Part shown: positions 3,001-63,334 of the stretch, in pieces
Position numbering within the stretch: the first letter of the stretch is position 1
How the letters are laid out: every line of letters starts with the position of its first letter
Origin: Mobula hypostoma
Lineage: Eukaryota
Assembly: GCF_963921235.1 (NCBI RefSeq)
Contig: NC_086097.1
Location: 102,240,001-102,304,000 of the forward strand
Reading direction: 5' to 3'
DNA: 64,000 nt
Notes under the pieces: model-generated
Told to the model about the DNA's origin: nothing
Databases searched by the model: none
Seen by the model: the letters and a program-made list of their open reading frames with translations, nothing else
Program-made: the position numbers and the translations under genes

Positions 3001-3400
3001 TGGATATTGGAGATCAGACATGGAGACCGGATACTGGATGCTCAGCCAAAGAACACACCTGATTCGACTGCACCCAACAAGTCAGACACCTTACAGCCTC
3101 TCAGTGATGTCACTGACAGCAACGTGACACTAGAGACTGAGAATCTTGTCTCAGACAAGATGCCTACCAAACCCGATGCCACTCCACAAGCCCAGAGGCA
3201 CTATCCTAAAAGAAACAGAGCACCATCCAAAAGACTGAATCTTTAGAACTGGGAAGTTAATTATGGACTGTTATTGTGAAATATGGAATGGGTTTACAAA
3301 AGGGAAATTGAATGTTTTGTACACTGTTTTATGTTGATTAATCCAAAGAGGAATAAGTGTAATGTATGGATCTATTTCTTTTGGAGCAATATGCATTTAT
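1..3400 (+). mobile_element. Degenerate Ty3/Gypsy LTR retrotransposon internal region (RT - RNase H - integrase), 5' part outside the window
   Basis: Frameshifted pol fragments: PRFHKAHPV...PIVLVIK...CWDFKVTINP (RT start), LAC..SPYGIGAVLSH-like RNase H at ~1600-1800, integrase ORF 2430-3062 (LIAVDAHSKW...LRTIFARNGLPEQIVNDNRPQYTSEEF...NGLAERF); purine tract then TGTAAT at ~3345-3363 (possible 3' LTR start). Confidence 0.9.
1024..1480 (+). mobile_element. CR1-type LINE 3' fragment inserted in the Gypsy element
   Basis: Typical CR1 ORF2 end (GLYSLEFRRIQGDLIETY) and 3' terminus (gaatggcctcattctgctcctatgtcctatgg); Gypsy sequence resumes after it. Confidence 0.85.
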
Positions 3401-4411
3401 CTGTGCACAAACACAGCACTGACCTATAGACTTTATGCCTAGAGAATTCAAGTGCTCTTCCTGATTCATGTTAAATCCTAGCAGCAACCATGCTACCTGT
3501 GAGTCAGTATGTTCCAGGTCCTCACCACATTTTGGATAAAAATGGTTTCCCCTCAGATCACCTACAAATGTTTTACCATGTCCCCTAAATCTAATGTCCT
3601 ACAGATTTATTAGTTGCATCCTCAACTTTGCCCTGCCACTTTCACTGACCGGCACACACATACCAAATCCATCTGCTTCTACACCATTTCCAGAATAGCA
3701 TTCTCTATTTTGAATTATTTCTCCTCTTTCTTCCTACAAAAAGACACAACCTCACTTCCTCTGCATTAAATTTCATCTGCTACCCCTAGTGCTCATTGTC
3801 CAATACTACACAATTTAAACTTCAGATTAAAATGCCACATTCTCCTGATCCAAACTTCTCAGCTCCTCTATGAAATGGACCAGTTCAATCCAATCTGAAA
3901 ACTTTTTGTGATCAAGTAATAGAATACTGACCAGTCTCCTGCCTCTCCTCACTTCATGACAATTAATTAAATATTGCTCAACTTTGGGATTGTGTATTTT
4001 TCAAAGCAGCAACCATTTTCAAATAATTGAACAAGTAATGTGCTAACAGTGTGTTTAAAAATGGAATATTATCACGTTAAGGACTCAAAGCTCAACCTAC
4101 AAGTCTTGAGGTCAATAAACCACAGAGTGAAGTAAGTTGCACATAAACAACAGAAAAATACACTGTTCATTTTGTGGTGTTATGTCCTAGTTCTCAGTCT
4201 CATTCTGAGCACATAATGCACAAATTCCTCCATGGGACCTGATGTTATATGATGCAAATACTACACCAAACCAACTCAAGATAACATATCACTTGCAAAA
4301 TTTGTCATTTTCTCCTACATCATGGACAATAAAGGCAAGGCTAGCATTTAATGTCCAGCTCCAACAGTCCTTGTGATTGACAACTTTTAGTGTCACACTT
4401 GCACGCAGGTG

Positions 4412-4915
4412 CAGAAGGTACCTAATAAAGTGGCCACTGAGTGTATTTCTGTATGTTCGTGGTCTTCTGCTGCTAAAGCCCACCCACTTCGAGGTTCAAC
4501 ATGCTGTGCATTCAGAGATGCTCTTCTGCACACCACTGTTAGTTGTTCACCTTCCTGTAGCTTGACCCAGTCTGGCCATTCTCCTCTGATCTCTCTCATT
4601 AATAAGGTGTTTTCACCCACAGAACTGCCACTCACTGGATGTTTTCACACCATTCTCTGCAAACTCTAGAGACAGTTGTACATGAAAATCCCAAGACATC
4701 AGCCGTTTCTGAGATATTCAGACCACCCCATCTGGCACCAACAATCACTGCACAGTCAAAGTTATTTGTATTGCATTTCTTCCCCATTCTGATGTTTAGT
4801 CTGAACAACTGAACCTCTTGACCATATCTGCATGCTTTTATGCACTGATTGGCTGATTAGAGATACCTGCATTAATGAGCAGGTGATCAGGTGTACCTAA
4901 TACAATGGCCAATGT
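4412..4915. mobile_element. Tc1/mariner-derived non-autonomous remnant
   Basis: Terminal motif gtacctaataaagtggccactgagtgta at 4418-4445 and a degenerate copy at ~4890-4915; the same motif recurs at ~25288-25340. Confidence 0.65.
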
Positions 4916-10559: not shown

Positions 10560-12860
10560 AGAAAGATTAAGGTAGTTGTGAGTAGATTGAGAAAGGTGAA
10601 CCCACAAAAAGTATCTGGTCCAGAAGGTGTACCTGGCCAAATACTGAAGACATGTGCTGATCAACTGGCTGGAGTGTTTCTGGAGATCTTCAACCTCTTG
10701 GCCTCTGCATTATGAGGTACTATGCTCTCATACTGGCCCCCATGAAGAAGGTTCTATGACTATAGTCCAGTAGCACTTAATGAAGTGCTTTGAGAGGTTG
10801 GATATGAAGCATATCAACTCCTGCCTGAGCAGTGACTTGGATCCGCTCCAATTTGTCTACCAGCACAACAGGTCAACAGCAGATGCCATTTCATTGGCTC
10901 TTCACTCAGTTCTGGAACATCTGGGCAGTAAAGATCCATACATTAGAATGCTCTTCATTGACTATAGATCAGCATTCAACACTATCAACTGCACAAACCT
11001 AATCAATAAGCTCGAAGTCTTAGTCCTCGATACCTCCTCACACAACTGGATCCTCGATTTTCTCTCTTGCAGGCTCCAATCAGTGCATCTCCTCCACAAT
11101 CACCACCAGCACAGGTGTACCACAAGGCTGTATGCTTAGCGCCCTGATCTAGTCACTTTATACTTCTGACTGTGAGCTAAGCACAGCTCCAATGGCATGT
11201 TTAAGTTTGCTGATGACACCACTGTCGTTGGCTGAAACAAAGGTGGTGAAGAATCAGCATATAGAAAGAAGATTGAAAATCTGGTTGAATGATGCCATAA
11301 CAACAACATCTCATTCAACGTCAAAGAACTGATTATTAACTACAGGAGAAAGAAACCAGGTGTCCAAAAGGTAATCCTCATTAGGGGATCGGAGGAGGAG
11401 TGGGTCAGTAACTTTAAATTCCTTGGCATTATCATATCAGAGGATCTGTTGTGGAACCAGCATGTGTAGATTCGGCATATCACCTAAAAACTTTGAAAAA
11501 TTTCCATAGAAGCACAGTGGAGAGTATCTTGACTGGCTGTGTCACAGCCTCGCATGGAAACACGAAAGCACAGTGGAGAGTATCTTGACTGGCCGTGTCA
11601 CAGCCTCGCATGGAAACACGAAAGCACAGGAATTCTTGACTGGCCGTGTCACAGCCTCGCATGGAAACACGAAAGCACAGGAATTCTTGACTGGCCGTGT
11701 CACAGCCTCGCATGGAAACACGAAAGCACAGGAATTCTTGACTGGCCGTGTCACAGCCTCGCATGGAAACACGAAAGCACAGTGGAGAGTATCTTGACTG
11801 GCCGTGTCACAGCCTCGCATGGAAACACGAAAGCACAGGAATTCTTGACTGGCCGTGTCACAGCCTCGCATGGAAACACGAAAGCACAGTGGAGAGTATC
11901 TTGACTGGCCGTGTCACAGCCTCGCATGGAAACACGAAAGCACAGGAATTCTTGACTGGCCGTGTCACAGCCTCGCATGGAAACACGAAAGCACAGGAAT
12001 TCTTGACTGGCCGTGTCACAGCCTCGCATGGAAACACGAAAGCACAGTGGAGAGTATCTTGACTGGCCGTGTCACAGCCTCGCATGGAAACACGAAAGCA
12101 CAGGAATTCTTGACTGGCTGTGTCACAGCCTCGCATGGAAACACGAAAGCACAGGAATTCTTGACTGGCCGTGTCACAGCCTCGCATGGAAACACGAAAG
12201 CACAGGAATTCTTGACTGGCCGTGTCACAGCCTCGCATGGAAACACGAAAGCACAGGAATTCTTGACTGGCCGTGTCACAGCCTCGCATGGAAACACGAA
12301 AGCACAGGAATTCTTGACTGGCTGTGTCACAGCCTCGCATGGAAACACGAAAGCACAGTGGAGAGTATCTTGACTGGCCGTGTCACAGCCTCGCATGGAA
12401 ACACGAAAGCACAGGAATGGAAAAGCCTACAAAAAGTAGTGGATACAGCCCAGATAATCACAAGCAAAGCCCTCCCCACCATTAAGCAAATCTACAAGGA
12501 GCACTGCCACAAGAAAGCAACGTCTACCGTCAAGAACCCCTTCCATCCAGGGCATATTCACGTCTCACTGCTGCCATCAGGAAGCATGTCCTAGGTCCCA
12601 CACCACCAGGTTCAGGAATGGTAAGCTTCTGAACCAGCATGGGTAACTTCACTCAACTCAACAACCTATGGACTCACTTTCAAGGACTCTACAGTTCATG
12701 TTCCCAGTATCATTTATTTATTATTCATTCACTCATTATATGTTTATTTGTATTTGCAGAGTTTGTCAGTTGTTCTTTGTGTGTAGTTTTCCATCGGTTT
12801 TATTGTATCACCTGTGAGAGAGTGAATCTCAGGGTGCACACACTTCATTAATTAATGTAG
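10560..12860 (+). mobile_element. Rex1/Babar-type LINE, 5'-truncated, with internal tandem array
   Basis: RT motifs MKCFERL...[23 protein letters not shown]...[64 protein letters not shown]-rich 3' UTR. Confidence 0.9.
11510..12418 (+). repeat. Minisatellite: 17 copies of a LINE-derived core, with 51-bp and 56-bp periods
   Basis: Core tcttgactggc(c/t)gtgtcacagcctcgcatggaaacacgaaagcacag joined by gaat (51-bp, 11 junctions) or tggagagta (56-bp, 5 junctions); 11x51+5x56=841 equals the first-to-last core distance. Confidence 0.97.
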
Positions 12861-21354: not shown

Positions 21355-21565
21355 CTATATGCCTTCTTTGCTTTCTCCCTCCCCCCCCCCACCTTTTAAC
21401 TCCACTCCTCGTCCTTTTTTCTGCAGGTGTCCTACTGAAAGGTCTCGGCCCAAGATGTCGACTGTACTCTTTTCGATAGGTGCTGCCTGGCCTGCTGAGT
21501 TCCTGCAGCATTTTGTGTGTGTTGCTCGGATATATAGCATCTGCAGATTTTCTCTTGTTTGTGAT
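21355..21565 (+). mobile_element. Penelope-like pseudo-LTR fragment with degenerate hammerhead motif
   Basis: gtcctactgaaaggtctcggcccaagatgtcgactg...tgctgcctggcctgctgagttcctgcagcattttgtgtgtg, homologous to the pLTR at 41130-41260. Confidence 0.75.
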
Positions 21566-26139: not shown

Positions 26140-26700
26140 TCATGCCCGTCGCCCCGACCCCCTCCAAGGCTGCCTCTGTCCGAGCCGCCCCTTTACGCAC
26201 GTCCACGCGCGAGCGGGACCGGCCCCTTTAAGGAGCAGCGCTCGCGTTCTTTGACCCTATCGGGAAGCGGAGAGGACGGTGTGGCGGACGGTCAGAGCGA
26301 TCAGGTTTGTTTCAGTTCTGGTCTCCAAACGCTTCCGGGGTGGTGGTCGCTGCCAGTGGCAGAGAACGGCCATAGCAGCGGAGCGGAGCTGGGCTGGGCT
26401 GGCAGTGGTATGCAAGGGGTGCACTTTGAGCGGAGGGAAGGAGGTGGTATCGGCGGGCCCCGGTGGCTGGGATGGGAGCAAAGGGTGCGATGTGTCGGCG
26501 GAGCTGGATGGAGTCGCGGGGGGTTGAATGGAAGGTGTCAGCGGGCTCGGGTGGGGTTGGGGGAGTGAGTGAATGAATGGGAGGCTACGGGGGTGTCCTT
26601 ATCAGTGAGCTGCAGAAGTGGGAGGTGTTGCGGGAGCGGATCCATCTGAAAAGTCCTTACAAGTTGATTTCCCTTCCTCGGCAATCCCGCGTGGTTTATA
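26140..26700 (+). promoter_or_regulatory. PTGR2: CpG island: PTGR2 promoter and probable non-coding exon 1 (ending ~26304)
   Basis: Dense CpG/GC block with CGCGCG, CCCTTTAAGG and ETS-like CGGGAAG; donor CAG|GTTTGT at 26304/26305; lies ~7.5 kb upstream of the ATG-containing exon. Confidence 0.7.
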
Positions 26701-27609: not shown

Positions 27610-28950
27610 GTGCAACACACACAGCAGGTCAGGCTATGGACAAGAGTAAACAGTCGATCTTTCAGGCCGAGTCCCTCCAACAAGATTGGGGGAAGAAAGG
27701 ATGAAGTCAGAATAAAAAGGTGGAGGGAGGAGAGGAAGTGAGGTAGGTGACACTAGCTGGGGGAGGAGGAGAGGGGGTGGGGGTGAAGTAAAGAGCTGGG
27801 AAATTGATTGGTGAAAGAGATGAAGGGCTGCTGAAGGGGAAAGGTTAGAAGACCATTAGAAGAAAGGGAAGGGAGAGGAGCCCCAGCGGGAGGAGATGGG
27901 TAGGTAAGGAGACAAGGTGAGAGAGGGAAACAGGAACGGTGAAAGAGCAGGGAGGGGACAATTACTGGAAGCTTGAGACATCGATGTTCATGCCATCAGG
28001 TTGGAGGCTACCCAGGCGAAATGCATGGTGCTACTCCTCTGACCTGAGTGTGGCCTCATTGCAGCAGGAGAGGAGGTTGTGGACTGTATGGGAATGGGAA
28101 GCAGAATTCAAATAGGGACCCACCAGGAGATCCTGCTTTTTCTGGTGGACAAAGGGTAGGTGCTTGGTGAAGCTAACTCCCAGTCTACGTTGGGTCTTAC
28201 TAATATACATGCAGGAGGCCATACTGGACACAGTAGATGGCCCCAAAAGACTCTCAGGTGAAGAGCTGCCTCACCTGGAAGGATTGTTTGGGGTCCTGAA
28301 TGGTAGTGAGGGAGGAGATGTAGGGGCAGGTGTAGCACTTGCAAGGATAAGTGCCAGGAGGGAGATTGGTGAGGAGGGTCAAATGGAGAAGGGAGTCGCG
28401 TAGGGAACGATCCCTGTGGAAAATGGGAGGGGGAGGGGAAGATGTGCTTGGTGGTGGGATCCTGTTGGAGATGACAGAATTATGTGCTAGATGCGGAGGC
28501 TTTGGGGGGGGGCGGGTGGTAGGTGAGGACGAGAGGAACCCTATTCCTGGTGGAGTGGTGGGAGAATGGGGTGAGGGCTGATGTGGACAAAATGGAAGAG
28601 ATATGGGTGAGGGCAGCATTAATGGAGGGAGGGAAGCCCCTTTCTTTGAAGAAAGAGGACATCTCATTAGTCCTGGAATGTAAATGAAATGAAAAGCCTC
28701 AACCTGAGAGCAGATGTGATGGAGACAGAGGAACTGAGAGAAGGGGATGGCTTTTTTCTCAAACAAGTAACAGGGTGGGAAGAGGTATAGTCCAGGTAGC
28801 TGTGGGAATCAGTGGGTTTATAAAAACATATCAGTAGATAAGCTGTCTCCAGATATTTGGAGAGATCGAGAAAGGGGAGGGAGGAGTCGGAAATAGACCA
28901 GATAAATTTGAGAGCAGGGTGGAAGTTGGAGGTAAGGTTGATGAGCTCAG
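27610..28950 (-). mobile_element. Penelope-like element relic (RT C-terminus, GIY-YIG endonuclease, pLTR)
   Basis: AIPFSQFLCLHHICS, MSSFFKERGFPP, RVPLVLTYHP, PGTYPCK/CYTCPY, YISKTQRRLG..F.KHL, HLNS.SHSH, EEQH-like end; pLTR with degenerate hammerhead at ~27650-27690. Confidence 0.9.
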
Positions 28951-31684
28951 TCTATGCAATTTCCCTGATAACTGAATTGTTCCATCTAAGGCAACACTTC
29001 AAATCTCTTTTGCATTTTCTGGTATTACTGTGACCTTCCTATAACATGGTGGCTAGAACTGCACACGATAAACTAGCTATGATCTAACCAATGTTCTGTA
29101 TAATTGTAGGGTAGTGATGAGGATTTGTCTGGAATTTGTGTGTTGAGGAAATTACTTTCAAAGACTGAAAGAAGTCATTCATTTTGGTGAGGATGTTAGG
29201 CTGGAGGACCTGTTCCATTGCTGTATAACTTAAAATACTTTTTTCTTGCCTCCGGCTTCTTTGATGGAGTTCATCACCGGTTCTTCTCTCTTAATGGCCT
29301 TGCAAATTATTTCACCAAATATAAATTTCAGGAAGGTACTAAATTTTAGACCTTTTTTAATTATCTGGAATGGAGCAAAAATTGTTTTGTAAATACTTCT
29401 CTGGTTATTCTCTTGTGACAGGAACCAGTTTCTCTCAATGTTCTCCAGCAGACCCCACTTTAATTTGTAGAATTGTTAAGGCATATTCAACCCACTGAGT
29501 CTGTACCTGCTCGTTGTACAGCAATTAGATCATTGTCTTCCCACAGTTTCTCTATCTAATCCCTTTCCAACTCCATTTTAAAGGCCCGGATTTGTACCCA
29601 CCAGCCAACCAGGCAATGAAATCCAGATGCTAACTACCCTCTACCTAACCCCAGTCCAAAATCGCTTTTGTTTTGCTTTGGTCAAGGCCCCTCCCAGTTC
29701 ATTATATGACATTCAATTGACATGGGGTGAGCATAACAAATTTCCGTGATCAAAGAATATTAGGATTTTGGTAAAAAACTAATTGAATATTTTTGTCATT
29801 CTTCCTGGGTGTTCTTTTTAAACCTCTAGAGGTTTCATACTGAACCAGTAAAAGTGACGTGACATTTAATCAATGTTTAACCAAAGTCTGAAGGTTGTTC
29901 AGATACAGAAAATTGTTGTTTTTTCAGTTTGGATGAAACGAATTGGGAGGAGCTCTGAACGGAGTGTAAAGTCTTCATTGACTGCTTGGGCTGAGTAGCT
30001 TCTGTTATGCACTGATTAAAATCAGAATAATGACACAACAGGCCAGTCAGATTCTCTCACCAACTTACTACATTTTTTTCAATTATTTGTCTAGTACCTG
30101 TTTGAAAGCTCTTGTTGAATCACTTTTCATGCTCTCTTAAATAAAACTTTTTTTTTCTTTGAGTCACTCTTGGTTCTTGTGCTGATGAATTGAAGTCGGT
30201 GCCTTTCAGCCACACCTCATTTGCTCCATTTCCAGTCTGTATTTCCTGTACCACTTGTATCTGGTGCATAGTGACTCAGTTTCAGCTTCCCCTGGAGAAA
30301 TGATATGCTGTACAGGCTGAAATCTAGAGCAAAAAAAAATGCCTATTTAATAAAAAAAACAAATTTCTGTTGAATAGGCAACATCTATAATTAATATTTC
30401 TGTTGAATAACATCTGATGACATCAATGAGCTGAAATGTTGGTCGTTATTTTAACACAGATGTGGATATTTCCTAAGAAATGAGAGTAGGAGTTGGGACA
30501 CATCGCACTACCACCCAGCAAGGTCTTGGCTGATCTTGTATCTTGGTATCATTTTCCTTGTCCTCCCAATTTAGCATCATCTACGCCATCATAATTGCAG
30601 GAGGAGCAATGATGGTGACTTGCTGTGGGTAACAAAACAATGACAGATACCTTTAAGGCCCAAGTACCCAATACACACGCCTAATTTAAGATAAATGCTC
30701 TGTAATGTTTTAACCAGCATTAAAATGTGTTAATAAATGCATTTAAAAGATCTAAGGATTGTGGTTGAAGAGTCGCCCTATAACACATTGTTCATATAAT
30801 ATGAATTGGTTTCTTGAAGTGTCAAGTGGCTCCTGGATGTTTGCCTATTTCAACTGGTGGTTTAATGGGGAGCAGTTGATTTACACAGCTGTACCTTCTG
30901 ACTTCAAAACCATGTGTCAGTGTATTTAATGACAGTAATTTGAACCCCCACCCCTTGTTATTTTGTCATCGTCCCCCTTCCTTTCCAATCCATAAGAAGG
31001 GTCTTTTGCCTGAAACTTTCTTTGACTTGTATTCATTTTTATGGCTGCTGCCTGACCTGCAGATTTCCTCCAGAATTTTGTATGTGTTATTTGAACTGTA
31101 TTTTTGTGGTTCAGTTGTTCTGATCAACTATACACCTTCTGACTATTGCAAGCTCCTCCCTACAAATGCCTAAATGGAAGTCAAATTGAGTAACAACACA
31201 ATTAGAAAAATTATCATAGGAATTTCCATTTTTGTAGTAATCTTGAAGAAGAGATAAGCAAGTATGTAGCAAATTTAAAAATAACTTTGTGTGACATTAT
31301 TGGTGTTTTTCTTTCCTCCCCCCCCCCCCCAATAGACAGATGACAGGTCATTTGGGTTGAAGGGAGATAATGTAGACAGTGGTGATTAATGAGAGCAGCT
31401 GGTCTGTCTTTGCGTTTGTGAAGGAGGAGGCTGCAAGGGAGAGGAAGGTTTGGAGTAAAGTTGGTTTCTTCTGCTGGCTTGGCTATTGTGAAACATATTG
31501 TTTTGTGGAGATGTGATAACTTTAAATCCTTGTGCAAAGAATAAGGAATTAAAGCCTTTTCAGCATCCTTTTTGACTTGAGTGCCATGCTTGAGGACTGG
31601 TTAACTAGTGCTTTCAATGCCAGACTGGAAATTGAGACTCTTTCTTGTTTATGGCTGATTCTCAGGCTCAACATCAATTCTAAA

Positions 31685-32373
31685 CAACACACATCAAAGT
31701 TGCTGGTGAACGCAGCAGGCCAGGCAGCATCTCTAGGAAGAGGTACAGTTGACGTTTCAGGCCGAGACCCTTCATCAGGAGTAACTGAAGGAAGAGCTAG
31801 TAAGAGATTTGAAAGTGGGAGGGGGAGAGGGAGATACAAAATGATAGGAGAAGACAGGAGGGGGAGGGATGGAGCCAAGAGTTGGACAGGTGATTGGCAA
31901 AAGGGGATACGAGAGGATCATGGGACAGGAGGTCTGGGGAGAAAGACAAGGTGGGGGGAGAACAGAGGATGGGCAAGGGGTATAGTCAGAGGGACAGAGG
32001 GAGAAAAAGGAGAGTGAGAGAAAGAATGTGTGTATAAAAATAAATAACGGATGGGGTACGAGGGGGAGGTGGGGCATTAGTGGAAGTTAGAGAAGTCGAT
32101 GTTCATGCCATCAGGTTGGAAACTACCCAGACGGAATATAAGGTGTTGTTCCTCCAACCTGATTGTGGCTTCATCTTTACAGTAGAGGAGGCCGTGGATA
32201 GACATGTCAGAATGGGAATGGGATGTGGAATTAAAATGTGTGGCCACTGGGAGCTCCTGCTTTCTCTGGCAGACAGCGTAGGTGTTCAGCAAAGCGGTCT
32301 CCCAGTCTGCGTTGGGTCTCGCCAATATATAGAAGGCCACATCGGGAGCACCGGACGCAGTATATCACCCCCG
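31685..32373 (-). mobile_element. Young Penelope-like element 3' fragment (GIY-YIG C-terminus and pLTR) with 15-bp TSD
   Basis: ELPVATHFNSTSHSHSDMSIHGLLYCKDEATIRLEEQHLIFRLGSFQPDGMNIDFSNF; flanked by aacatcaattctaaa (31670-31684) and aatatcaattctaaa (32374-32388). Confidence 0.92.
31747..31782 (-). ncRNA. Minimal type I hammerhead motif, core intact but stem I mutated
   Basis: Minus strand ACUC-CUGAUGA-AGGGUCUCGGCCU-GAAA-CGUC-AACU; stem I has 2 of 4 pairs broken. Confidence 0.6.
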
Positions 32374-33883: not shown

Positions 33884-33923
33884 ATGGTGTCGATTCAGCA
33901 AGTTGTATTGAGCTCTCGACTGG
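33884..33923 (+). CDS. PTGR2: Prostaglandin reductase 2, first coding exon (exon starts ~33856)
   Basis: MVSIQQVVLSSRL-G matches the PTGR2 N-terminus (MIVQRVVLNSRPG); acceptor ttctag| at 33855, phase-1 donor G|GTGAGT. Confidence 0.9.
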
Positions 33924-35499: not shown

Positions 35500-37400
35500 A
35501 TAATGTGTGTTGAAGACAGTGGCTTGCAGTCAGTGAACTGTGCTCTGTGGTCATTGGACTTGAAGCAGGACACCCTGAGGCCCTTTTCATCACTGGTGAT
35601 TTCAGTCAGGCCAATTTCAAGTATATTACCAAAATACTTCCGGGAAGTCTCTTGTCCCAAAAGGGGCCCAAACATGCGTGAATCTGTGGAATTCATTGTC
35701 ACAGATGGCTCTGGAGGCCAAGTCATTGATATATTTAAAGAGGAGGTTGATGGGTTCTTGATTAGTCAGGGCATCAAAGGTTTCATGAAGAAGGCAGGAA
35801 ATCGGGTTCAAGGGGGTTAATAAATCAGCCATGATGGGATGGCAGAGCAGGTTTGAGGGGCTGAGTGGTCTCGTTCTGCTCCTATGTCCTGTGGTATGAA
35901 TCAGACCACCAGGCTGTGCTCCTTCACTCTGCACACAAACAGAAGTTGAGACACGAGAATCTAATACAGAAAATTATAGTGCTGGTTTGAGGAAATAGAT
36001 CAGCTTCTGGTGACTGCTTTGAGTCAGTAGACTGATCCACATTCAAAACCAGTTTAGATGAGTATGTCACAATCACCACAGACTTTGTCAGTAAGTGTGT
36101 TGAGGATTATGTACCAAAGAGGACAATTTGGGTGTTCCCAAATTGGGAACCATGAATGATCGGGGAGACCCACTTCCTACTGGGATTTAAAACTGAATGA
36201 ACAGGGGGACCCACTTCCTACTGGGATTTAAAACTGAATGAACAGGGGGACCCACTTCCTACTGGGATTTAAAACTGAATGAACAGGGGGACCCACTTCC
36301 TACTGGGATTTAAAACTGAACGGGGAGACAAACTTCCTACTGGAATTTGAAACTGATGTTGAAATTGGGTGACCCTGACCTATGCAAGAAATTAGAATAT
36401 GACCACTGAAAAGCCATCAGGGATGCCAAGAGTCAGTATGTCCAAAGTAAATTCCTAGTAGTGGCAGGGTTTATTTGCAATTACAGGCTACAAAACAAAG
36501 TTGGGCAGCATCACTGCTGGTGAGCGCAACACGTTCTGTGCACAGAATGGATTGGAATGTCACCACCAGCCGCGACTGTCTGATACGCAGCTCAGCCCAC
36601 CATCATGGAGAGTGAATCCGCAGAAAGCATTTGGCCCAGACACTGTCCCTGGTCACGTCCTTTCATCCTTTACAGATTAGCTGGTGGAGGGTATTTGCAG
36701 ACTTTAAATCTCTCCCACCTTCAAGTTGAGTTTCGTACCTGCTTTAAGCAGACCACTATCACTCCAGTACGCGTGAAACAAGTAACGTTCTTCATGACTA
36801 CTGCCTGGTTGCTCTGATATCCATCATCGTGAAGTGCTTTGAGATGTTTGTCATGGTACAGATTAACTCTGACATCCCACACAGCTTTACTGTGAAACAG
36901 GGCCAAATCTCTAGCCCTGAAGCATCTGGACAGTAAATGTATCCATGTTAGACCATTGTTTATTGACCACAGCTTGGCCTTCAATACTATCATTCCAAGC
37001 AAACTCATCTCTAAATGCCCAGATCTGGACTCGGCTCCTCCTTTGTCACTGGGTCCGCAGCTTCCTGATCAATAGACTGCAACTAGCAAGGAGCAACACC
37101 TTTGCTCTGATTATTCTCAATATTGGTGCCCCACAGGCTGCTCCCTATACACTCACAACTGACCAGGTTCTTCTCCAATTGCATCTACAAGTTTGTGGAT
37201 GATCCCACTGTAGTGGACATTTCTCATGTAACGTCAAGTTTGGTACAGAAAGGAGAGAACCTAGGACATGGGGTCATGACAACAACTTTTCCCTCAATGT
37301 CACCAAAGCAAAAGAGTTGGCCGCCTGCTTCACAAAGGGTGAAGCAGTGCACATGCATGCTGTTGCAGGGTTTGTGGACTGGCCAAGGGGACAGAAGACA
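35500..37400 (+). mobile_element. Degenerate Rex1/Babar LINE with nested CR1 3' end (~35680-35897) and internal tandem repeat
   Basis: IITGDF.QAN-like endonuclease end, [49 protein letters not shown]. Confidence 0.8.
36163..36357 (+). repeat. 41-bp tandem repeat, 4 copies plus a diverged fifth
   Basis: cacttcctactgggatttaaaactgaatgaacagggggacc with starts at 36171, 36212, 36253 and 36294, then a diverged copy at 36331. Confidence 0.95.
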
Positions 37401-40095
37401 CCATCTACAGGTGAGTTTTGACATTCTTCAACAAAGGAAGACAAACATCAAAACATTCAAGTTGCACATATGCTCCTTTAAAAGACGATGCTGGTGGTGC
37501 TTTACAGGCGGCAAACTAAAGTACTAACTATGCTATTAATTACACTTTTTCTGAGCTGCAATTCTCAGCCTGTAACTCGCCCTTCGGGAGTTATGCTGTT
37601 GAACCGTCAGTACAACCTGGCACTTCTGTGGTATCCTGAGGAATCCAGTGAACTGGACTCTTGAGAATGTAGGTACAGCCTCGGCGGGCATTGCTGGAGC
37701 AGACCTGAGCCTGGATCGAAGTGGCAGGGCCCAGGCCCAGGCCCGAGAGAGGAAAAACAAACCGATGTTTAACCATTGCAAGAGCAGAGATGGGGCCGGA
37801 TCAAAATGGCTGGGCCTGGGCGTGGAAAACAAATCAATGTTTGGCCAATTTAAATGCTGAGCCAGATTTAAAAAGGTCAAAGCATCAAGGCTGAGAGCAA
37901 AGGATGAACCTGTGTTTAGCTGGCTACTCTGTGAGGTTTACTTGCCTCAGAACTGAACTGACTCGGCAGCTGTGGCCTGCAACCATCAGCAGTAGTCTGA
38001 CCAGTGCACTGGCTCATGGTTGTGGCTTGCACCATAGGACTTCTGGACTGGTTTCTTTCACCTCAGTGCTGAACTGGCTCTGTGGCTGTCGACTTGCTTT
38101 TGGGGGCCTTGTTCACGTTCTGTGTTTTGTTTGTTTACCTTTTATTGTTTGCACGATTCTCTTTTTGCATGTTGGGTGTTTGGTCCTTGTGTGGGTTTTT
38201 TTTAATGGTATTTCTTCATTTTGTGGCTGCCTACAAGAAGACAAATTGTAAGGTTGTATATGGTCTACATACTTGTACTCATCTAAGTGTGTGCCTGAGA
38301 CCTCCATCTGCAACACACTTCCAAACTTACTGCGGTGTGGTTCACGCAGATATTGACCCAGCGAGACCACCACACATGCTACATTTATATGGTAGCAGTA
38401 CTTTCTTGCTAGAAGCTAGTATCATGGCACTAGAGTCAGTCAGTGGAAGGGCTGCAGCGTTCTTCAGATAGGCTAGTTGATAACTAATGTGGCAGCAGTG
38501 ACTTTCAATTGGCAGATAGTGTTAACTTTCGCACTACATTCCACCCCTCTAAAAGCTGTGACACTGACACCTGGCCTTTAGGCTAGTATAACCCATGTGG
38601 TTGCCCCATTATGACATGGAACTATAATACCCAATACCCAGTAGACTCCCCAGTGTAACACAGTAGTCCACCAACCTAGTGCCCCATTGTCTTGACATTT
38701 AGCTGATGCATATGCAAATGTATCATGGTCACCATTTTGTAAAGGTGTGCTTTGAACTTCAATTTACTGCTTGCAATTTACAATTTGCATTAAAATCTGA
38801 AGACTAGTTCTTGTCTGACTTAATATCTGTTATATTCACATGACTTCAGAATACTTCCAAACATGCCATCCCTCCTCTTGGCCCCTGGACAGAAATCTGT
38901 GCCAGGAAGGGCAAACCTGTAGGAAGATGTAATTAAGTAGGGTAGTGAAAGTGCCCTTCACTTCAGATCACTTGCTCAATTTCTAACCTATCACGTCCCA
39001 ATATCTATCTACACTATCTGTCATCCCTAATTGGCTATCTACAAGACTAAGCAGTAATGGCATTAAAACATTCCAGAAATTTGATCATGTCTTGGGCACT
39101 TCTGTCTTCTCTATTTCAACCAGTCTTTAAAACGCAACTTTATCATCTGTGTGCTTGTTGCCTCCTTCCCTACTGACCTATTACACTTCGATCACATCCT
39201 TAACTTTACGCCTTCAATCTCTGATAGCTAAAACTGTCAGTAGTTACTTTGTGGGCAGGGGTATCAGCAAGGTAACTTTGTTTCATGTTTGCATTCCATG
39301 CAATAACAGGAGGTTATCAGAATAATCAGACAACCAGCCTCTGCCCCTTTGATCTAAATGCGTGTTTGGGGTGGTCCCTGTTTGAGAGACTGCAAGGACC
39401 TCACCCCAATGGCACTGTACCCAGACTGTCCTTTTGATCAGGGGTCCCCAACCTTTTTTGCACTGCAGACTGGTTTAATATTGACAATATTCTTGCGGAC
39501 TGCGGGGGGGGGGGGGGTGTTGATCAATACCGGAATATAGGTGATAAGTCAACTATAAATCATTTATAAGTGTCTAATACACTTGTTACATGTTCAAGGA
39601 GATTTTTTTTGTGAGAATGCTGTAATGGTCTTTTGGAGGTCACCTGATGTGATTTTCCCATCGATGTGAGGTCACGTGATGATGTGCCCCGTGACTATAT
39701 AAGGGTCGACTCAGGTGACGCAGTGGGTTTTGAGTTTGTAGATTTCCAGGTAGAACGTGTTGTGCCTCCGTTTCTGTTGCATGTTTGTTTTTGTGACGCA
39801 GTTTCATTTTTAAAACGGAAGGTGCGTTCTCTTACAAGATATGGTATTTGGACTGGGAATTTGTGGCTGGAAGTGCCAATTTACTCAATTCCGACAGTTT
39901 TGAAGGGAGAGTGAAGAATTCATCGAAGTGAAGGATCGAGAGCAGTCGGCATCGTTTGGCAGTTTAATAAAGAATCGACCTTATTGAGTCTTCGTTGGAG
40001 AGAACCTGCATCGAGATAACTCTTGTAAAAGGGCAACATACATCAAAGTTGCTGGTGAACGCAGCAGGCCAGGCAGCAACTATAGGAAGAGGCGC

Positions 40096-40131
40096 AGTCG
40101 ACGTTTCAGGCCGAGACCCTTCGTCAGGACT
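40096..40131 (-). ncRNA. Minimal type I hammerhead ribozyme (Penelope pLTR)
   Basis: Minus strand AGUC-CUGACGA-AGGGUCUCGGCCU-GAAA-CGUC^GACU: conserved core, 4-bp stem I, short stem II, palindromic ACGU stem III, GUC cleavage triplet. Confidence 0.85.
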
Positions 40132-41133
40132 AACTGAAGGAAGAGTGAGTAAGGGATTTGAAAGCTGGAGGGGGAGGGGGAGATGCAAAATGATAGGAGA
40201 AGACAGGAGGGGGAGGGATAGAGCCGAGAGCTGGACAGGTGATAGGCAAAAGGGGATACGAGAGGATCATGGGACAGGAGGCCTAGGGAGAAAGACGGGG
40301 GGGGGGTGACCCAGAGGATGGGCAAGAGGTATATTCAGAGGGACAGAGGGAGAAAAAGGAGAGTGAGAGAAAGAATGTGTGCATAAAAATGAGTAACAGC
40401 TGGGGTACGAGGGGGAGGTGGGGCCTAGCGGAAGTTAGAGAAGTCAATGTTCATGCCATCAGGTTGGAGGCTACCCAGACGGAATATAAGGTGTTGTTCC
40501 TCCAACCTGAGTGTGGCCTCATCTTTACAGTAGAGGAGGCCGTGGATAGACATGTCAGAATGGGAATGGGATGTGGAATTAAAATGTGTGGCCACTGGGA
40601 GATCCTGCTTTCTCTGGCGGACAGAGCGCAGACAGAGCTCTGTCCGCCAGAGAAAGCAGGATCTCCCAGTGGCCACACATTTTAATTCCACATCCCATTC
40701 CCATTCTGACATGTCTATCCACGGCCTCCTCTACTGTAAAGATGAGGCCACACTCAGGTTGGAGGAACAACACCTTATATTCTGTCTGGGTAGCCTCCAA
40801 CCTGATGGCATGAACATTGACTTCTCTAACTTCCGCTAGGCCCCACCTCCCCCTCGTACCCCAGCTGTTACTCATTTTTATGCACACATTCTTTCTCTCA
40901 CTCTCCTTTTTCTCCCTCTGTCCCTCTGAATATGCCTCTTGCCCATCCTCTGGGTCACCCCCCCCCCCGTCTTTCTCCCTAGGCCTCCTGTCCCATGATC
41001 CTCTCGTATCCCCTTTTGCCTATCACCTGTCCAGCTCTCGGCTCTATCCCTCCCCCTCCTGTCTTCTCCTATCATTTTGCATCTCCCCCTCCCCCTCCAG
41101 CTTTCAAATCCCTTACTCACTCTTTCTTCAGTT

Positions 41134-41169
41134 AGTCCTGACGAAGGGTCTCGGCCTGAAACGTCGACT
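41134..41169 (+). ncRNA. Minimal type I hammerhead ribozyme (Penelope pLTR), sense to PTGR2
   Basis: AGUC-CUGACGA-AGGGUCUCGGCCU-GAAA-CGUC^GACU; predicted cleavage after C41165. Confidence 0.85.
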
Positions 41170-44100
41170 GCGCCTCTTCCTATAGATGCTGCTTGGCCTG
41201 CTGCGTTCACCAGCAACTTTGATGTATGTTGCTTGAATTTCCAGCATCTGCAGAATTCCTGTTGTTCTTGTAAAAGGGCAATGAGTTCATGCAAAAAGGT
41301 GCTCTCTCTAAAAGGAATTTAAGGTCAGTCAATTTAAAGTGTTTAATTTCGGCATCGGGAATCCTGTGGACAGAACCAGCAGTAAAAGTGCTTCGGTGAA
41401 GAAATTTTTCTCCAGAGAAGTCTCTCCCAATTGAATGCGTAAAACTGTTGGACTTTCGAAGTTACCGCTTTAAGAACTCTATCTGACTGTATCGCTTTAA
41501 GAACTGTTTTCAGCATTTAACGCTTTCAGAACCAGAGCCGAGTGGCGAGTCTCCGGTTAAAGTTTTCCTTTGTTTTTTTTTTCCTTATCGTTTATACGTG
41601 TTTAATAAATGTTTGGTTGTTTTTATATATCCTGTCTCGATTAATATTCATTGTTGCCGGTTACGTAACACACTCAATTTTGTTTCTAAAAGGGTTTATC
41701 TAACGAATTTAATATTAAATACAGCGCATATTTTCCTCGCATGGATATAGTGATAAGTCAATTATAAGTCACTTATAGGTCAATAGCATCATTAACATTT
41801 TAAGTAACGTTTTGATATTAAACACAGCGCATATTTTCCTTGTCTGAACATACAAAATCATTGCAACACACCAATATCGCTGAATCAATGGGAGCCCTGG
41901 GCTTGTTTCCCTGCAACAAGACAGTCCCATCGAGTGGTGATGGGAGACAGCGATACTCAGAGGGGGTTCCTTATGTCCAGTGTATTCCACAATTTAGTTT
42001 TCGTTGCATTCATTGCAGAAAACCCTGCTTCGCAGAGATATGATGTTGGAAATGGAAGCAACATTTTCAGTGCTTTTGTGGCTTTCTCAGGATATTCAGC
42101 CTTGACTTTGATCCAGAATGCCAGCAGAGATGTTATGTCAAACATACTTTTCAGCCCACCGTCATTTGCAAGCTCGAGGAGTTGATCTTCTTCCCTCGCT
42201 GACATGGATGATTCACCTGGGACATTCACAAATGGGTCATGGACCCATTCCTTTGCACGTCTTGGGTCATTTGCGGTTGGGAAGTAATGCTCGAATTCTG
42301 TCGAGAGTGAAGATAGGTGATCGAGCACCAGCTGTGAGAAAGACGGTGCAGCCTCAGTCTCTCCCAACATCCCAGCTAATGTTGGGAACATGTCAAATAT
42401 GCCCCTGTCCACTCGCCGTCCCCACAGTTCCAGTTTAGCTTTGAAAGCAGACACTATCTGCCAATTTGAAGACAATTATCATTCTCCTCTGAAGTGACAA
42501 ATTGAGTTCATTGAGCAGGTTGAAGATGTCACACAGATAAGTGAGTTCTGCTATCCACTCCTCATCACTGAAGTTTGCTGCCAGTGGTGACTTTTTTCCT
42601 GTAAGAGATCTCTGTAGCTGCTCTCTTAACTCAAAAACTCTGGCCAGGGCTCTCCCCCTTGATAGCCACCTGACTTCAGTGTGTAAGAGAAGGCGTTAAT
42701 GCTCTGCATCCATTTCCTCACAAAGCTGCTCAAACAGACGTGAGTTAAGGGCTTTTGTTTTGATGTGATTTATAACTTCAACAACGTTGAAGCTTCTCCC
42801 AACAGTTCATGGCACATGTCCTTGGCAGCAGGCAGAATCAATTCTTCACCAACAGTGAAAGGCTTCTTAGCCTTAGCAACACGGCCAGTCACTAAGTACG
42901 ATGCTCTCAGAGCAGCAGCATTTGTGGAGGTGGTGTCTCCCAGCACTTGCTTCTGTTCCGTTTGCTCAAAAAAAACTCAAACGGGTTTGTCTTTAAGTGC
43001 AGGGTGCTTGGACCCAAGGTGCTGAAGCAGTTTTGAGGGCTTCATTGCCTCATTAGACAGCTTGTCTCCACATATCACACACAGGGGGCTTGGAGCGTGC
43101 GAGTCACCGGTCACAATAAAGCCATATTTTATGTACAACTTGTCATATTTTCTGTTGAAGGAAGCTGTCTTTTTTTTTGCAGTCTCTGCCTCAGCTGTCT
43201 CTGCGTTACCTTCATCGTTAGGCCTTTTATGTCCCCTACCATCTCTTCCAAAGAAACTCTCAAGCGAAGTTTGTTGTTTTTTTTTTGACTCATCAAGTAT
43301 TTGTAGGTTAATGACTGACTGATGACCTCGAAAGGCTAATGACTTCCTGTGCATTCAAGTTCAACAGTGGGCGTGACAGAATGAGGAAAGGTGCAGCTGA
43401 CTCGTATCATTTCATGTATCGTTTCATATCGCCAAATCATATCGTTTCCTCGCTTTTCACATGCTCTGCAGCCCAGTACCGGTCCACGGCCTGGTGGTTG
43501 GGGACCACAGCTTTTAATCGCTGGCCTCAGACTGCTGAAGTGAGGGGTTAAAGTTATTAGTGAACTCTCCAGCCAGTTGATCAGTGTAGGTTACACTTGC
43601 ATTCTAGTAGACAGGAATGACCTAAATCCTGACTACTTGCATTTTGAGACACCTGCTGTGACTGTCTTGACCTTACAAAGTTCTTTCCGAAAGAACTAAA
43701 GCTCAATCAGTTGACAATACTCATATTTTATAAACTGTCTGAAACACTATTGTTAAGAAAAGCCATGTTTCAGTTCACTCCCCAAATGTTCCAATTTCCC
43801 TTCAGAAACAAACAAATCACCAATTTCCCTAATTGTCAATGTCTTTCAGAAAAGAGGGCATCCCATATCTGTAACAGAAGCGTAGATTTCCGTCATCTTG
43901 ACCTGCATTTCACATGGCTAGTACAGAATCTGGGTCTCAAATCAATTCCATATAAAGAAACAAACTAAAAACACAGACAAAACAAAATCCATCCTTCCTT
44001 CAGGGCCTTTGCAAGTTACTGGAAGCCCTAAACAAATAAGTTTATTTCCACAGTGAAGGAGAAAACATATGACAGCCTACTGTCACCGTTACTGAGCTGA

Positions 44101-52581: not shown

Positions 52582-52779
<198 letters not shown>

Positions 52780-53899: not shown

Positions 53900-54470
53900 A
53901 TAAACACAAAATGCTGGAGGATCGTAGCAGGTCAGGCAGAATCTATGAAGAGGAATTAACAGTTGATGTTTTAGGCTGAGACTTCATCAGGACTGGAAAG
54001 GAAGGGGAAAGAAGCCAGAATAGAAAATGGGGGAGGGGAGGGGAGGCAAGCTGGCAAGTCACAGGTAAGGGGATGGTAGGTAGGTAGGTGGGGAGGGGGA
54101 ATGAAGTGAGGAGCTGGGAGGTGATAGGTGGAAAAGTAAAAGGCTGAAGAAATGAGCTGAAAGGGGAGGACAGTGGGCTACAGAAGAAAGGGAAGTAGGA
54201 GGTGTAATAGAGGAAGGTGAGGGGAAGGGGTAAGTGGGGAGTGAGAATGGGGAATAGAAAAAGCAAAGGGGGATGGGGGAAGAAATGACCAGAAATTAGA
54301 CAAATTGATGCACATGCCATCAGATTGGAGACTACCTAGACAGAATATGAGGTGTTGCTCCTTGAACCTGAGAGTGACCTCATGCCAGTAGGGGAGGCCA
54401 TGAACTGGCATGTCAGAATGGGAAGTAGAATTAAAATGGATGACCGCTGGGATCTAAAACTGGCTTGGTA
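53900..54470 (-). mobile_element. Older Penelope-like 3' fragment with degenerate hammerhead
   Basis: MPVHGLPYWHEVTLRFKEQHLIFCLGSLQSDGMCINLSNF; pLTR agtcCTGATGAagtctcagcctAAAAcatcaact (GAAA mutated). Confidence 0.85.
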
Positions 54471-55044: not shown

Positions 55045-57065
55045 GATTCATAATCAGGATTATTAACACTGACGTATGTCGTGAAATTTGTTGTCTTGTG
55101 GCAGCACTACAGTGCAAGACACAGAAAATTACTACAGATAGTAAGAAAATAGTGCGAAAGCAAATTAACAACATTGTGATCATTAGCCATTCAGGAATCT
55201 GACGGTAGAGAGGAAGCTGTTGATTATTTTCGGACTCTTGAACTTCCTCCTTGATAGTAATGAGGCAAAGAGGGCACTTCGGATGGTGAGGGTCTTTAAT
55301 GATGGATGCTGCTTTCTTCAGGTATTGCCGCTTGAGAATGTTTTGGACGGTGGGCAGGGTTGTGCCCATGATGAATGTTTTGGACGGTGGGCAGGGTTGT
55401 GCCCATGGTGAATGTTTTGGACGGTGGGCAGGGTTGTGCCCATGGTGAATGTTTTGGACGGTGGGCAGGGTTGTGCCCATGGTGAATGTTTTGGACGGTG
55501 GGCAGGGTTGTGCCCATGGTGAATGTTTTGGACGGTGGGCAGGGTTGTGCCCATGGTGAATGTTTTGGACGGCGGGCAGGTTTGTGCGTATGATGAATGT
55601 TTTGGACGGTGGGCAGGGTTGTGACCATGATGAATGTTTTGGACGGTGGGCAGGGTTGTGACCATGATGAATGTTTTGGACGGTGGGCAGGGTTGTGCCC
55701 ATGGTGAATGTTTTGGACGGTGGGCAGGGTTGTGCCCATGGTGAATGTTTTGGACGGTGGGCAGTGTTGTGCCCATGGTGAATGTTTTGGACGGTGGGCA
55801 GGTTTGTGCCCATGATGAATGTTTTGGACGGTGGGCAGGGTTGTGCCCATGATGAATGTTTTGGACGGTGGGCAGGTTTGTGCCCATGATGAATGTTTTG
55901 GACGGTGGGCAGGTTTGTGCCCATGATGAATGTTTTGGACGGTGGGCAGGGTTGTGCCCATGATGAATGTTTTGGACGGTGGGCAGGGTTGTGACCATGA
56001 TGAATGTTTTGGACGGTGGGCAGGGTTGTGACCATGGTGAATGTTTTGGACGGTGGGCAGGGTTGTGACCATGGTGAATGTTTTGGACGGTGGGCAGGTT
56101 TGTGCCCATGGTGAATGTTTTGGACGGTGGGCAGGGTTGTGCCCATGGTGAATGTTTTGGACGGTGGGCAGGGTTGTGCCCATGGTGAATGTTTTGGACG
56201 GCGGGCAGGGTTGTGCCCATGGTGAATGTTTTGGACGGCGGGCAGGGTTGTGCCCATGGTGAATGTTTTGGACGGCGGGCAGGTTTGTGCCCATGGTGAA
56301 TGTTTTGGACAGCGGGCAGGGTTGTGCCCATGGTGAATGTTTTGGACGGTGGGCAGGTTTGTGCCCATGGTGAATGTTTTGGACGGTGGGCAGGTTTGTG
56401 CCCATGATGAATGTTTTGGACGGTGGGCAGGGTTGTGCCCATGGTGAATGTTTTGGACGGTGGGCAGGTTTGTGCCCATGATGAATGTTTTGGACGGTGG
56501 GCAGGGTTGTGCCCATGGTGAATGTTTTGGACGGTGGGCAGGTTTGTGCCCATGGTGGATGTTTTGGACGGTGGGCAGGGTTGTGCCCATGGTGAATGTT
56601 TTGGACGGTGGGCAGGGTTGTGCCCATGGTGAATGTTTTGGACGGTGGGCAGGGTTGTGCCCATGGTGAATGTTTTGGATGGTGGGCAGGGTTGTGCCCA
56701 TGGTGAATGTTTTGGACGGTGGGCAGGGTTGTGCCCATGGTGAATGTTTTGGACGGTGGGCAGGGTTGTGCCCATGGTGAATGTTTTGAATGGTGGGCAG
56801 GGTTGTGCCCATGATGAATGTTTTGAACGGTGGGCAGTATTGTGACCATGAATGTTTTGGACGGTGGGCAGGGTTGTGCCCACGATGGAGCTGGCTAAGG
56901 CTGCGGCTCTCAACAGTCTCCTCGATCTTGCACATTGGAGCCTCCGTACCAAAGAGCGATGCATCTAGTCAGAATGTACATCTGTAATTTGCTACACATT
57001 TGTGGTGACGTACCAAATCTCCTCAAATTCCTAATGAAGCTACAGCTGCTGGTGTGCCTTGGTGA
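55045..57065 (-). mobile_element. Rex1/Babar LINE 3' fragment containing a large tandem array
   Basis: Minus strand ..LMKF/EEIW..NYRCT, ASSIVGTTLPTVQNI|LKRQYLKKAASIIKDPHHP, then 3' UTR ending cacgacatacgtcagtgttaataatcctgatt. Confidence 0.85.
55336..56886. repeat. Minisatellite: 42 copies of a 37-bp LINE-derived unit
   Basis: gaatgttttggacggtgggcagggttgtgcccatg(g/a)t; the 37-bp period checks at 55336, 55373, 56039, 56779 and 56816; the penultimate unit is 34 bp. Confidence 0.98.

Positions 57066-60198: not shown

Positions 60199-60579
<381 letters not shown>

Positions 60580-63091: not shown

Positions 63092-63334
<243 letters not shown>

Follow-up and report, generated by a model that had tools for sequence, protein, structure and literature searches.

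The 64-kb window analysed here, the whole stretch of Mobula hypostoma DNA to which all positions refer, carries coding exons of PTGR2 on its plus strand, and since these flank a 1.2-kb palindrome, the palindrome is intronic. The first coding exon (33884..33923), forming the upstream border of the intron, has 13 of 13 residues identical to P0002 and a visible donor site; the next (52643..52761), forming the downstream border, and further coding exons at 60208-60399 and 63092-63265 were assigned by their match to PTGR2. The intron spans 18.7 kb. The original prediction of "intron 2" was right as to the intronic position, and its number holds if a possible upstream exon near 26490 (plus strand, weak match) is exon 1. 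The insertion splits a host repeat (39584..41670) that resembles a solo LTR, with TG...CA ends, a 4-bp flanking duplication and boundaries common to 14 other copies, and for which a genome search gave 1,852 candidates. Other copies of this repeat are uninterrupted across the insertion site and carry once the 16-mer that flanks the palindrome on both sides, in 14 of 14 examined (all recovered by alignment, 6 of them by a fixed pattern), which confirms the claimed 16-bp direct repeat as a true target duplication.

The palindrome represents a single insertion of a Penelope-like retrotransposon (PLE) that is young and present in many copies. Its tail-less arm (40033..40627, minus strand, 595 nt) holds the 3' part of the element, from positions -34 to -631 relative to the tail end, and its tailed arm (40637..41232, plus strand, 596 nt) holds the GIY-YIG C-terminal coding part and the pseudo-LTR, at 99.2% to a long family copy. 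The 33-nt tail (41233..41265, plus strand) is present on the right arm only and falls within the opening codons of the frame that belongs to the following unit (putative ATG at 41226-41228). One target duplication surrounds the whole unit, as 16-bp copies on the plus strand at 40021..40036, the last 4 nt of which double as the terminus of the tail-less arm, and at 41266..41281, which overlaps the element's continuation by 1 nt; this supports the single insertion event envisaged at the outset. The arms differ by 5 substitutions and a 1-nt indel in a G/C run and are joined by 9 nt (40628..40636), of which 5 nt prolong the left arm with one mismatch, found in 1 other insertion of about 66, and 4 nt are filler copied from adjacent sequence, so that the excess of the tail-less arm is 1 nt when counted exactly or 5 nt when one mismatch is allowed. 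Arm lengths, spacer, differences and the 4-nt overlap all match what had been claimed, as does the small central palindrome, located here as 14 nt at the junction. The 28-nt junction sequence occurs once genome-wide. In four public contig runs aligned to the centre, the right arm and the right flank, family copies overwhelmed the signal, and neither the junction nor editing was visible.

The proposed Penelope identity was borne out by a longer family copy (L161), whose 770-aa RT/GIY-YIG open frame has the same C-terminus as the last 66 codons in the right arm (40639..40836, plus strand). On its own the 66-codon stretch gave no Pfam match; the L161 frame matched RVT_1 (E = 2.3e-4, residues 261-423) and GIY-YIG (E = 2.5e-3, residues 673-746), both below curated cut-offs, and had 2,336 homologues at E <= 1e-30, mostly RT-bearing among the matches listed. 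One ORF with RT followed by a C-terminal GIY-YIG is the arrangement of endonuclease-bearing PLEs, and pseudo-LTR/tandem organization with an optional 30-40-nt tail and inverted truncated copies inside one target duplication are likewise PLE features. Tandem read-through is seen in L161, which begins in the previous unit's tail and, like L089, crosses the tail into the next unit; L107 contains a piece from beyond the tail. The RT-EN linker of another copy, L169, carries a CX4CxxC motif. In the clade characters given in PMC8557442, a CX2-5CxxC linker motif belongs to Neptune/Nematis and is absent from Penelope/Poseidon, and the ray linker sequence thus points to Neptune/Nematis, not Poseidon.

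Each arm also contains a minimal type I hammerhead motif, with a CUGANGA, GAAA and UH core and helices I and II: in the right arm at 41133..41170 (plus strand; core from 41138, predicted cut after 41165, helices I and II pairing by inspection) and in the left arm at 40095..40132 (minus strand, antisense to PTGR2; core at 40127, limits mirrored from the right arm). The claim of a hammerhead ribozyme near each outer end thus holds for the motifs, but a plus-strand transcript would contain only one in sense, the other being its antisense. Helix III of the right-arm motif is reduced to a palindromic remnant, and the architecture is that of the metazoan PLE hammerheads of Cervera and De la Pena 2014 (PMC4209133), which likewise combine a type I core, a short helix I, an unpaired base before helix II and a palindromic helix III remnant; in contrast to these, helix II of the ray motif has only 4 pairs, two of them wobbles, and its activity is putative. 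A scan of the 64-kb window against Rfam gave 0 matches at the gathering score, hammerheads included, the lowest-energy folds of longer stretches around the motif contained no hammerhead fold (z-scores 0.36, -1.01 and -0.70), and under constraint the hammerhead fold reached -7.0 versus -11.0 kcal/mol. Masking of the ribozyme by a hairpin would matter little, because single minimal hammerheads are reported to be inactive alone (PMC4209133) or protein-dependent (PMC11167929).

The head-to-head layout is not special to PTGR2, and the locus is ordinary for its family. In a position-ordered sample of 85 consecutive family insertions, 37 were head to head, 32 of them with a duplication of at least 11 nt (length 13-17 nt), so that the head-to-head copies with a shared duplication that had been proposed as a check do exist in numbers. 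The 37 comprise 31 tailed/tail-less pairs, 1 tailed/tailed, 1 tail-less/tail-less and 4 with one end elsewhere; where both outer ends are intact, 31 of 33 pairs combine one tailed and one tail-less arm (p = 6.5e-8 against 50%). The preferred outer ends of the family lie near +1 and near -36, either side of the tail, and each is used alone in the lone copies of the sample (23 tailed, 25 tail-less), yet the pairs are almost always mixed. A target duplication of at least 11 nt was present at 12 of the 25 lone tail-less copies. For 28 of all 48 lone copies none of that length was found within 4 kb, and some of these may be halves of larger insertions; when lone copies were screened for concealed inverted stubs, none of at least 11 nt was found, and five matches of 8-10 nt were. 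Both outer junctions show little microhomology (mostly 0-2 nt), which is no help in choosing between the models. For ends near -131, an origin by splicing onto a host exon was dismissed, since in L091 and L134 the target duplication lies immediately next to them. Genome-wide, we estimate a few thousand head-to-head family insertions, about 1,160 (680-1,900) with arms of at least 400 nt and about 580 (95% interval 270-1,200) with such arms and loops of up to 200 nt.

Arm lengths were compared in 47 pairs, obtained by pooling the 85-insertion sample with a score-ranked sample; in a stricter re-run, L112 and L153 were reclassified and L031, L032 and L060 removed as duplicates of L098, L169 and L163. 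The tail-less arm reached further 5' in 25 pairs, by up to 1.9 kb, and the tailed arm in 7, with 15 pairs ending within 20 nt of each other (p = 0.002); three pooled loci had been chosen on their tail-less arms, and the count without them is 22 versus 7. When both arms exceeded 200 nt (22 pairs), the tail-less arm was longer in 16 and the tailed arm in 3. Inner ends fell within 75 nt in 7 of 22 pairs versus 2.2 permuted (p = 0.003), and the 19 near-equal junctions listed all differ from one another. More diverged arms were not more asymmetric (rho 0.10, p = 0.65, n = 23), and L065 (2.0%) and L088 (2.9%), among the most diverged pairs, are still equal-ended. At L062, a tail stub of about 25 nt has no sequence in common with the tail-less arm, inside a 15-bp duplication. 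Both arms of head-to-head insertions belong to the same subfamily; minor alleles occurred in both arms 71 times and in one arm 28 times within insertions, compared with 630 and 3,106 between insertions, and 6 subfamily minor alleles are common to both arms at the PTGR2-intron locus. Non-CpG variant calls differed between arms in 28 of 99 cases, with three such sites at this locus, differences that are probably recurrent mutations, although two templates could also produce them.

We consider it probable that these insertions arise by two target-primed reverse transcriptions, one per strand of a staggered cut, with the products then joined head to head. The sequences suggest that both cut strands prime a copy of the element RNA, rather than one copy folding back. 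Each strand would prime at one of two start sites separated by about 36 nt, on one RNA that a protein dimer may hold; one subunit would start at the inner site and run ahead, the other would start at the tail end and follow by displacing the first copy, and microhomology with short templated fill-in would link the two 3' ends, lone copies representing loss of one of the two products. It is proposed that the tail-less arm is usually longer because the inner-site subunit runs ahead, that arms are equal where both copies stop at the same RNA end or block (here near -631), and that the 9-nt centre reflects microhomology joining with templated fill-in. The 7 of 47 pairs with a longer tailed arm count against two primings with the inner start leading. 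The reading fits in-vitro data on PAc, a Poseidon element from Anolis carolinensis (Frangieh et al. 2024, PMC11167929), which cuts and extends both target strands, has, like the ray element, two start sites that lie early in the ORF on either side of the tail, with a hammerhead just upstream, and is a predicted dimer. PAc belongs to another clade than the ray element with its CX4CxxC linker motif, its start sites show no difference or bias between strands, so that in vitro the one-of-each rule does not recur, and inverted copies are not discussed in that paper.

The snap-back second-strand synthesis of the original prediction, in which a tail-end-primed cDNA folds and copies back to about -36 and unequal arms result from later central deletions, draws on the equal arms and small central palindrome at the PTGR2-intron locus, the alleles common to both arms and the excess of near-equal ends, and if copy-back invariably ended near -36, the 31 of 33 mixed pairs would fit snap-back too. 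In mouse, long palindromes are known to undergo asymmetric deletion at the centre. A deletion starting from a longer tailed arm, however, should not favour the tail-less arm (25 versus 7), asymmetry does not increase with age, and to produce L062, or the tail-less copies that stand alone within clean duplications, a deletion would have to stop precisely at the duplication. The family data speak against snap-back as the general route, because it cannot yield tail-less arms longer than the tailed ones, non-overlapping arms or lone tail-less copies with target duplications; we regard it as unlikely, although it could have acted at the PTGR2-intron locus, where the arms are equal. Self-priming is also how the account of Pen2a_Av in Arkhipova et al. 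2013 (PMC3846280) reads such insertions. Two primings that use separate RNAs from a single source locus, or two different units of a tandem transcript, would accommodate the large arm-length differences, the read-through and beyond-tail sequences and the alleles that differ between arms, but give no reason for one-of-each starts, the tail-less lead or coinciding inner ends, and appear distinctly unlikely. Copying of a ready-made palindrome, or of an antisense self-primed RNA, as a unit has a precedent in the antisense self-priming proposed in PMC3846280 and is very improbable given that the locus junction is unique in the genome and the near-equal junctions all differ. An assembly fold-back artefact, which the unconfirmed junction in the public contigs might suggest, is scarcely credible against six arm differences, a one-sided tail, different flanks, a duplication that fits the empty sites and the same layout at 37 of 85 loci.

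The head-to-head layout itself is already known for PLEs. For endonuclease-bearing PLEs, Craig et al. 2021 (PMC8557442) describe insertions in which a 5'-truncated copy lies next to the element in inverted orientation and a tail of 30-40 bp is found at one end only, and PMC3846280 does so for Pen2a_Av, likewise with one target duplication and a palindromic junction; the PTGR2-intron locus differs from these in that truncation is equal in both arms, so that a near-perfect palindrome of 1.2 kb results. Both accounts attribute the junction to self-priming and the tail to resolution by the endonuclease; the ray counts, in contrast, favour two primings. A two-strand priming model of PLE inversions was not found in the literature covered, which did not extend to the 2005 paper by Evgen'ev and Arkhipova or to Arkhipova 2006, so an earlier statement is possible. 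In twin priming of L1, both target strands prime on one RNA, giving a 5' inversion within one target duplication; with L1 the second priming begins deep inside the element, and there is no overlap between the two parts. The second start of the ray element, in contrast, is fixed about 36 nt from the first, and its arms therefore duplicate the same sequence.

If the intron RNA folds, a 594-pair hairpin of -1,305 kcal/mol is predicted, in agreement with the roughly 600-bp hairpin proposed for PTGR2 pre-mRNA. A selected role for it, as an ADAR or Dicer substrate or a source of family-wide silencing RNA, could call on this predicted structure, on the abundance of family sequence in two probable RNA runs and on the small RNAs from rotifer PLEs described in PMC3846280; since the locus is one of an estimated 1,160 long head-to-head copies, a young repeat nested in another repeat with nothing locus-specific seen, such a role seems highly unlikely. 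We take the palindrome to be, most likely, a neutral by-product lying in a PTGR2 intron.

The locus is useful because it opens up a large young family in which insertion footprints can tell PLE integration models apart, a question called unresolved in the literature; the one-of-each rule and the leading tail-less arm make sharp predictions for the existing in-vitro system. From mammals, long tight inverted repeats are expected to be unstable, and against this expectation they persist by hundreds in the M. hypostoma genome. Whether PLE integration is intrinsically two-ended, a dimer on one RNA priming from both strands, one subunit on each side of the tail and the inner start in the lead, we judge to be evenly balanced. 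If it is, head-to-head palindromes would represent the completed reaction and lone copies one that failed halfway, a single explanation would cover both the inverted pseudo-LTRs and the presence of a tail on one side only, and the family would be a factory that has seeded a vertebrate genome with hundreds of palindromes that are long, tight and persistent.

Self-alignment of the window placed the inverted arms at 40033–40627 (−, tail-less) and 40637–41232 (+, tailed), with five substitutions and one indel between them, in agreement with the original prediction; a further 33 nt extend the right arm to 41265. The direct 16-mer repeat is likewise present, at 40021–40036 and 41266–41281, and the position is intronic as claimed, between the PTGR2 coding exons 33884–33923 and 52643–52761 (both +); one PTGR2 exon is 98% identical to that of Mobula birostris. 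At about 26490–26570, a probable upstream exon weakly matches the N-terminus of a Hemitrygon isoform. The insertion splits a solo-LTR-like repeat (39584–41670, with at least 1,852 candidates), of which all 14 other copies examined are uninterrupted and carry the 16-mer position once; a genome search found the central junction sequence to be unique. The palindrome is real, and an assembly artefact is very unlikely to lie behind it, although reads did not corroborate the junction. The split repeat is itself seemingly nested in another, whose end near 39440 we take to resemble a hAT-type terminus.

Intron RNA of PTGR2 is predicted to be able to form a 594-pair hairpin and, inverted repeats being generally plausible editing substrates, editing is plausible here too. 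A selected host role is nonetheless improbable, given that the locus is one of many and is nested in another repeat. The upstream PTGR2 intron harbours a further member of the same Penelope-like element (PLE) family, a lone and older tail-less copy (31676–32371, −; 92% identity; element −725 to about −34, counting back from the tail end) that seems to have a 12-bp target duplication; pairing between this copy and the right arm in pre-mRNA is possible as well. Older relatives of this family (72–77% identity) occur at 21374–21561, 27967–28942 and 54292–54452, and tandem arrays at 11510–12418 (51/56-nt unit), 36153–36356 (41-nt unit) and 55319–56889 (37-nt unit).

The predicted Penelope identity held: the arms comprise the final 630 nt of a young PLE, and the 770-aa frame of L161, a near-complete copy elsewhere in the genome, encodes an RT and, at its C-terminus, GIY-YIG. 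The linker, as read in copy L169, contains a CX4CxxC motif, which by the criterion of PMC8557442 points to Neptune/Nematis, not Poseidon. Genome searches returned 1,283 candidates for the arm query and 9,681 and 37,744 exact matches for a 51-mer of the element and a tail 23-mer, respectively. A minimal hammerhead motif was found in each arm, as predicted, and only the right one is in sense orientation in PTGR2 RNA; the motifs are of the kind described in PMC4209133, which reports no cleavage from a single motif. Of 110 inner ends across the family, 48 lie within element −150 to −119 (window 41116–41147), at the hammerhead's 5′ half, adjoining a pyrimidine tract with AG, like a 3′ splice site. 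An A-to-G variant at element −334 (window 40935) distinguishes the two arms of five pairs and lies on the + oriented arm in all of them.

The palindrome is a known architecture, not specific to PTGR2, the head-to-head PLE layout being already described in PMC8557442 and PMC3846280. The first 100 matches on contig C1 included 14 close minus-then-plus pairs, versus 0.47 by chance, and 0 plus-then-minus pairs. These matches span 36.5 Mb, the genome-mean density, and gave 85 insertions, all retrieved, comprising 37 head-to-head and 48 lone copies. A search for head-to-head copies with a shared target duplication was proposed with the original prediction; in this sample (L084–L168), 32 of the 37 have one, as do 20 of the 48 lone copies, so that duplications are far commoner in head-to-head insertions. 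Extrapolation, covering solely copies with the exact 51-mer, gives about 3,600 head-to-head insertions (2,800–4,500), 1,160 with arms of at least 400 nt, and, in that class, 190 (53–673) with inner ends at most 20 nt apart. Individual insertions include L169 (G000:C36:137098228-137105228; about 5.9 kb, 2.8-kb arms, 6 differing positions, 13-bp duplication), L065 (equal 2.08-kb arms, 17-nt spacer) and L092, which may enclose other DNA and has an opposite-strand tail match 4.2 kb off.

Outer ends of family copies form two clusters, near +1 (tailed) and near −36 (tail-less). Either kind of end occurs on lone copies (23 tailed, 25 tail-less; duplications of at least 11 nt in 8 and 12), but 31 of 33 complete pairs combine one of each. 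The original prediction invoked snap-back, in which cDNA folds on itself and primes its own second strand; because such a copy of a tailed cDNA cannot exceed its template in length, a longer tail-less arm speaks against it. In the unbiased, position-ordered sample (31 pairs), the tail-less arm was more than 20 nt longer in 13, the tailed arm in 4, and 14 were equal. Pooling these with the window locus and 38 score-ranked loci, mostly picked for long tailed arms, gave 25, 7 and 15 of 47, or 22 versus 7 without three loci picked on tail-less arms. The insertion L062 joins a tail-only stub to a 1.1-kb tail-less arm, with zero sequence in common, within a 15-bp duplication, and tailed arms are only 43–74 nt in L095, L107 and L086. 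Snap-back is thus unlikely as the family-wide route but possible at the PTGR2 locus taken alone, where both arms stop near −631, the left perhaps extending 5 nt further, followed by 4 nt of templated filler. Later deletion as the source of unequal arms is not indicated: asymmetry was unrelated to arm divergence across 23 pairs, and old pairs are still equal-ended. Minor alleles in 28 long pairs occurred on both arms in 71 cases and on one in 28, versus 630 shared and 3,106 one-sided between insertions, which indicates that both arms of a pair derive from one lineage; inner ends also coincide more frequently than in permuted pairs.

According to Frangieh et al. (PMC11167929), the protein of an anole PLE cleaves both strands and extends them, initiating at two internal RNA sites on either side of the tail, and a dimer is predicted for it; inverted copies are not discussed there, and strand bias in start site was not seen. 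Combined with the family counts, this in-vitro behaviour gives as the best model a target-primed synthesis from each of the two strands, each at its own start site, followed by 3′ end joining. Both syntheses would likely proceed on a single RNA, the inner start leading, with the 3′ ends of the two cDNA copies joined afterwards; the dimer, single RNA, strand displacement and joining chemistry are what we infer. At the PTGR2 locus, local fold-back of a few bases during joining would yield the small central palindrome. In L107, the junction includes an inverted 36-nt piece of the sequence downstream of the tail, and the template RNA therefore extends beyond the tail. In the literature searched, two-ended priming of this kind was not found in print. 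The interest of the locus rests on the family-wide insertion footprint, which favours priming from both ends.
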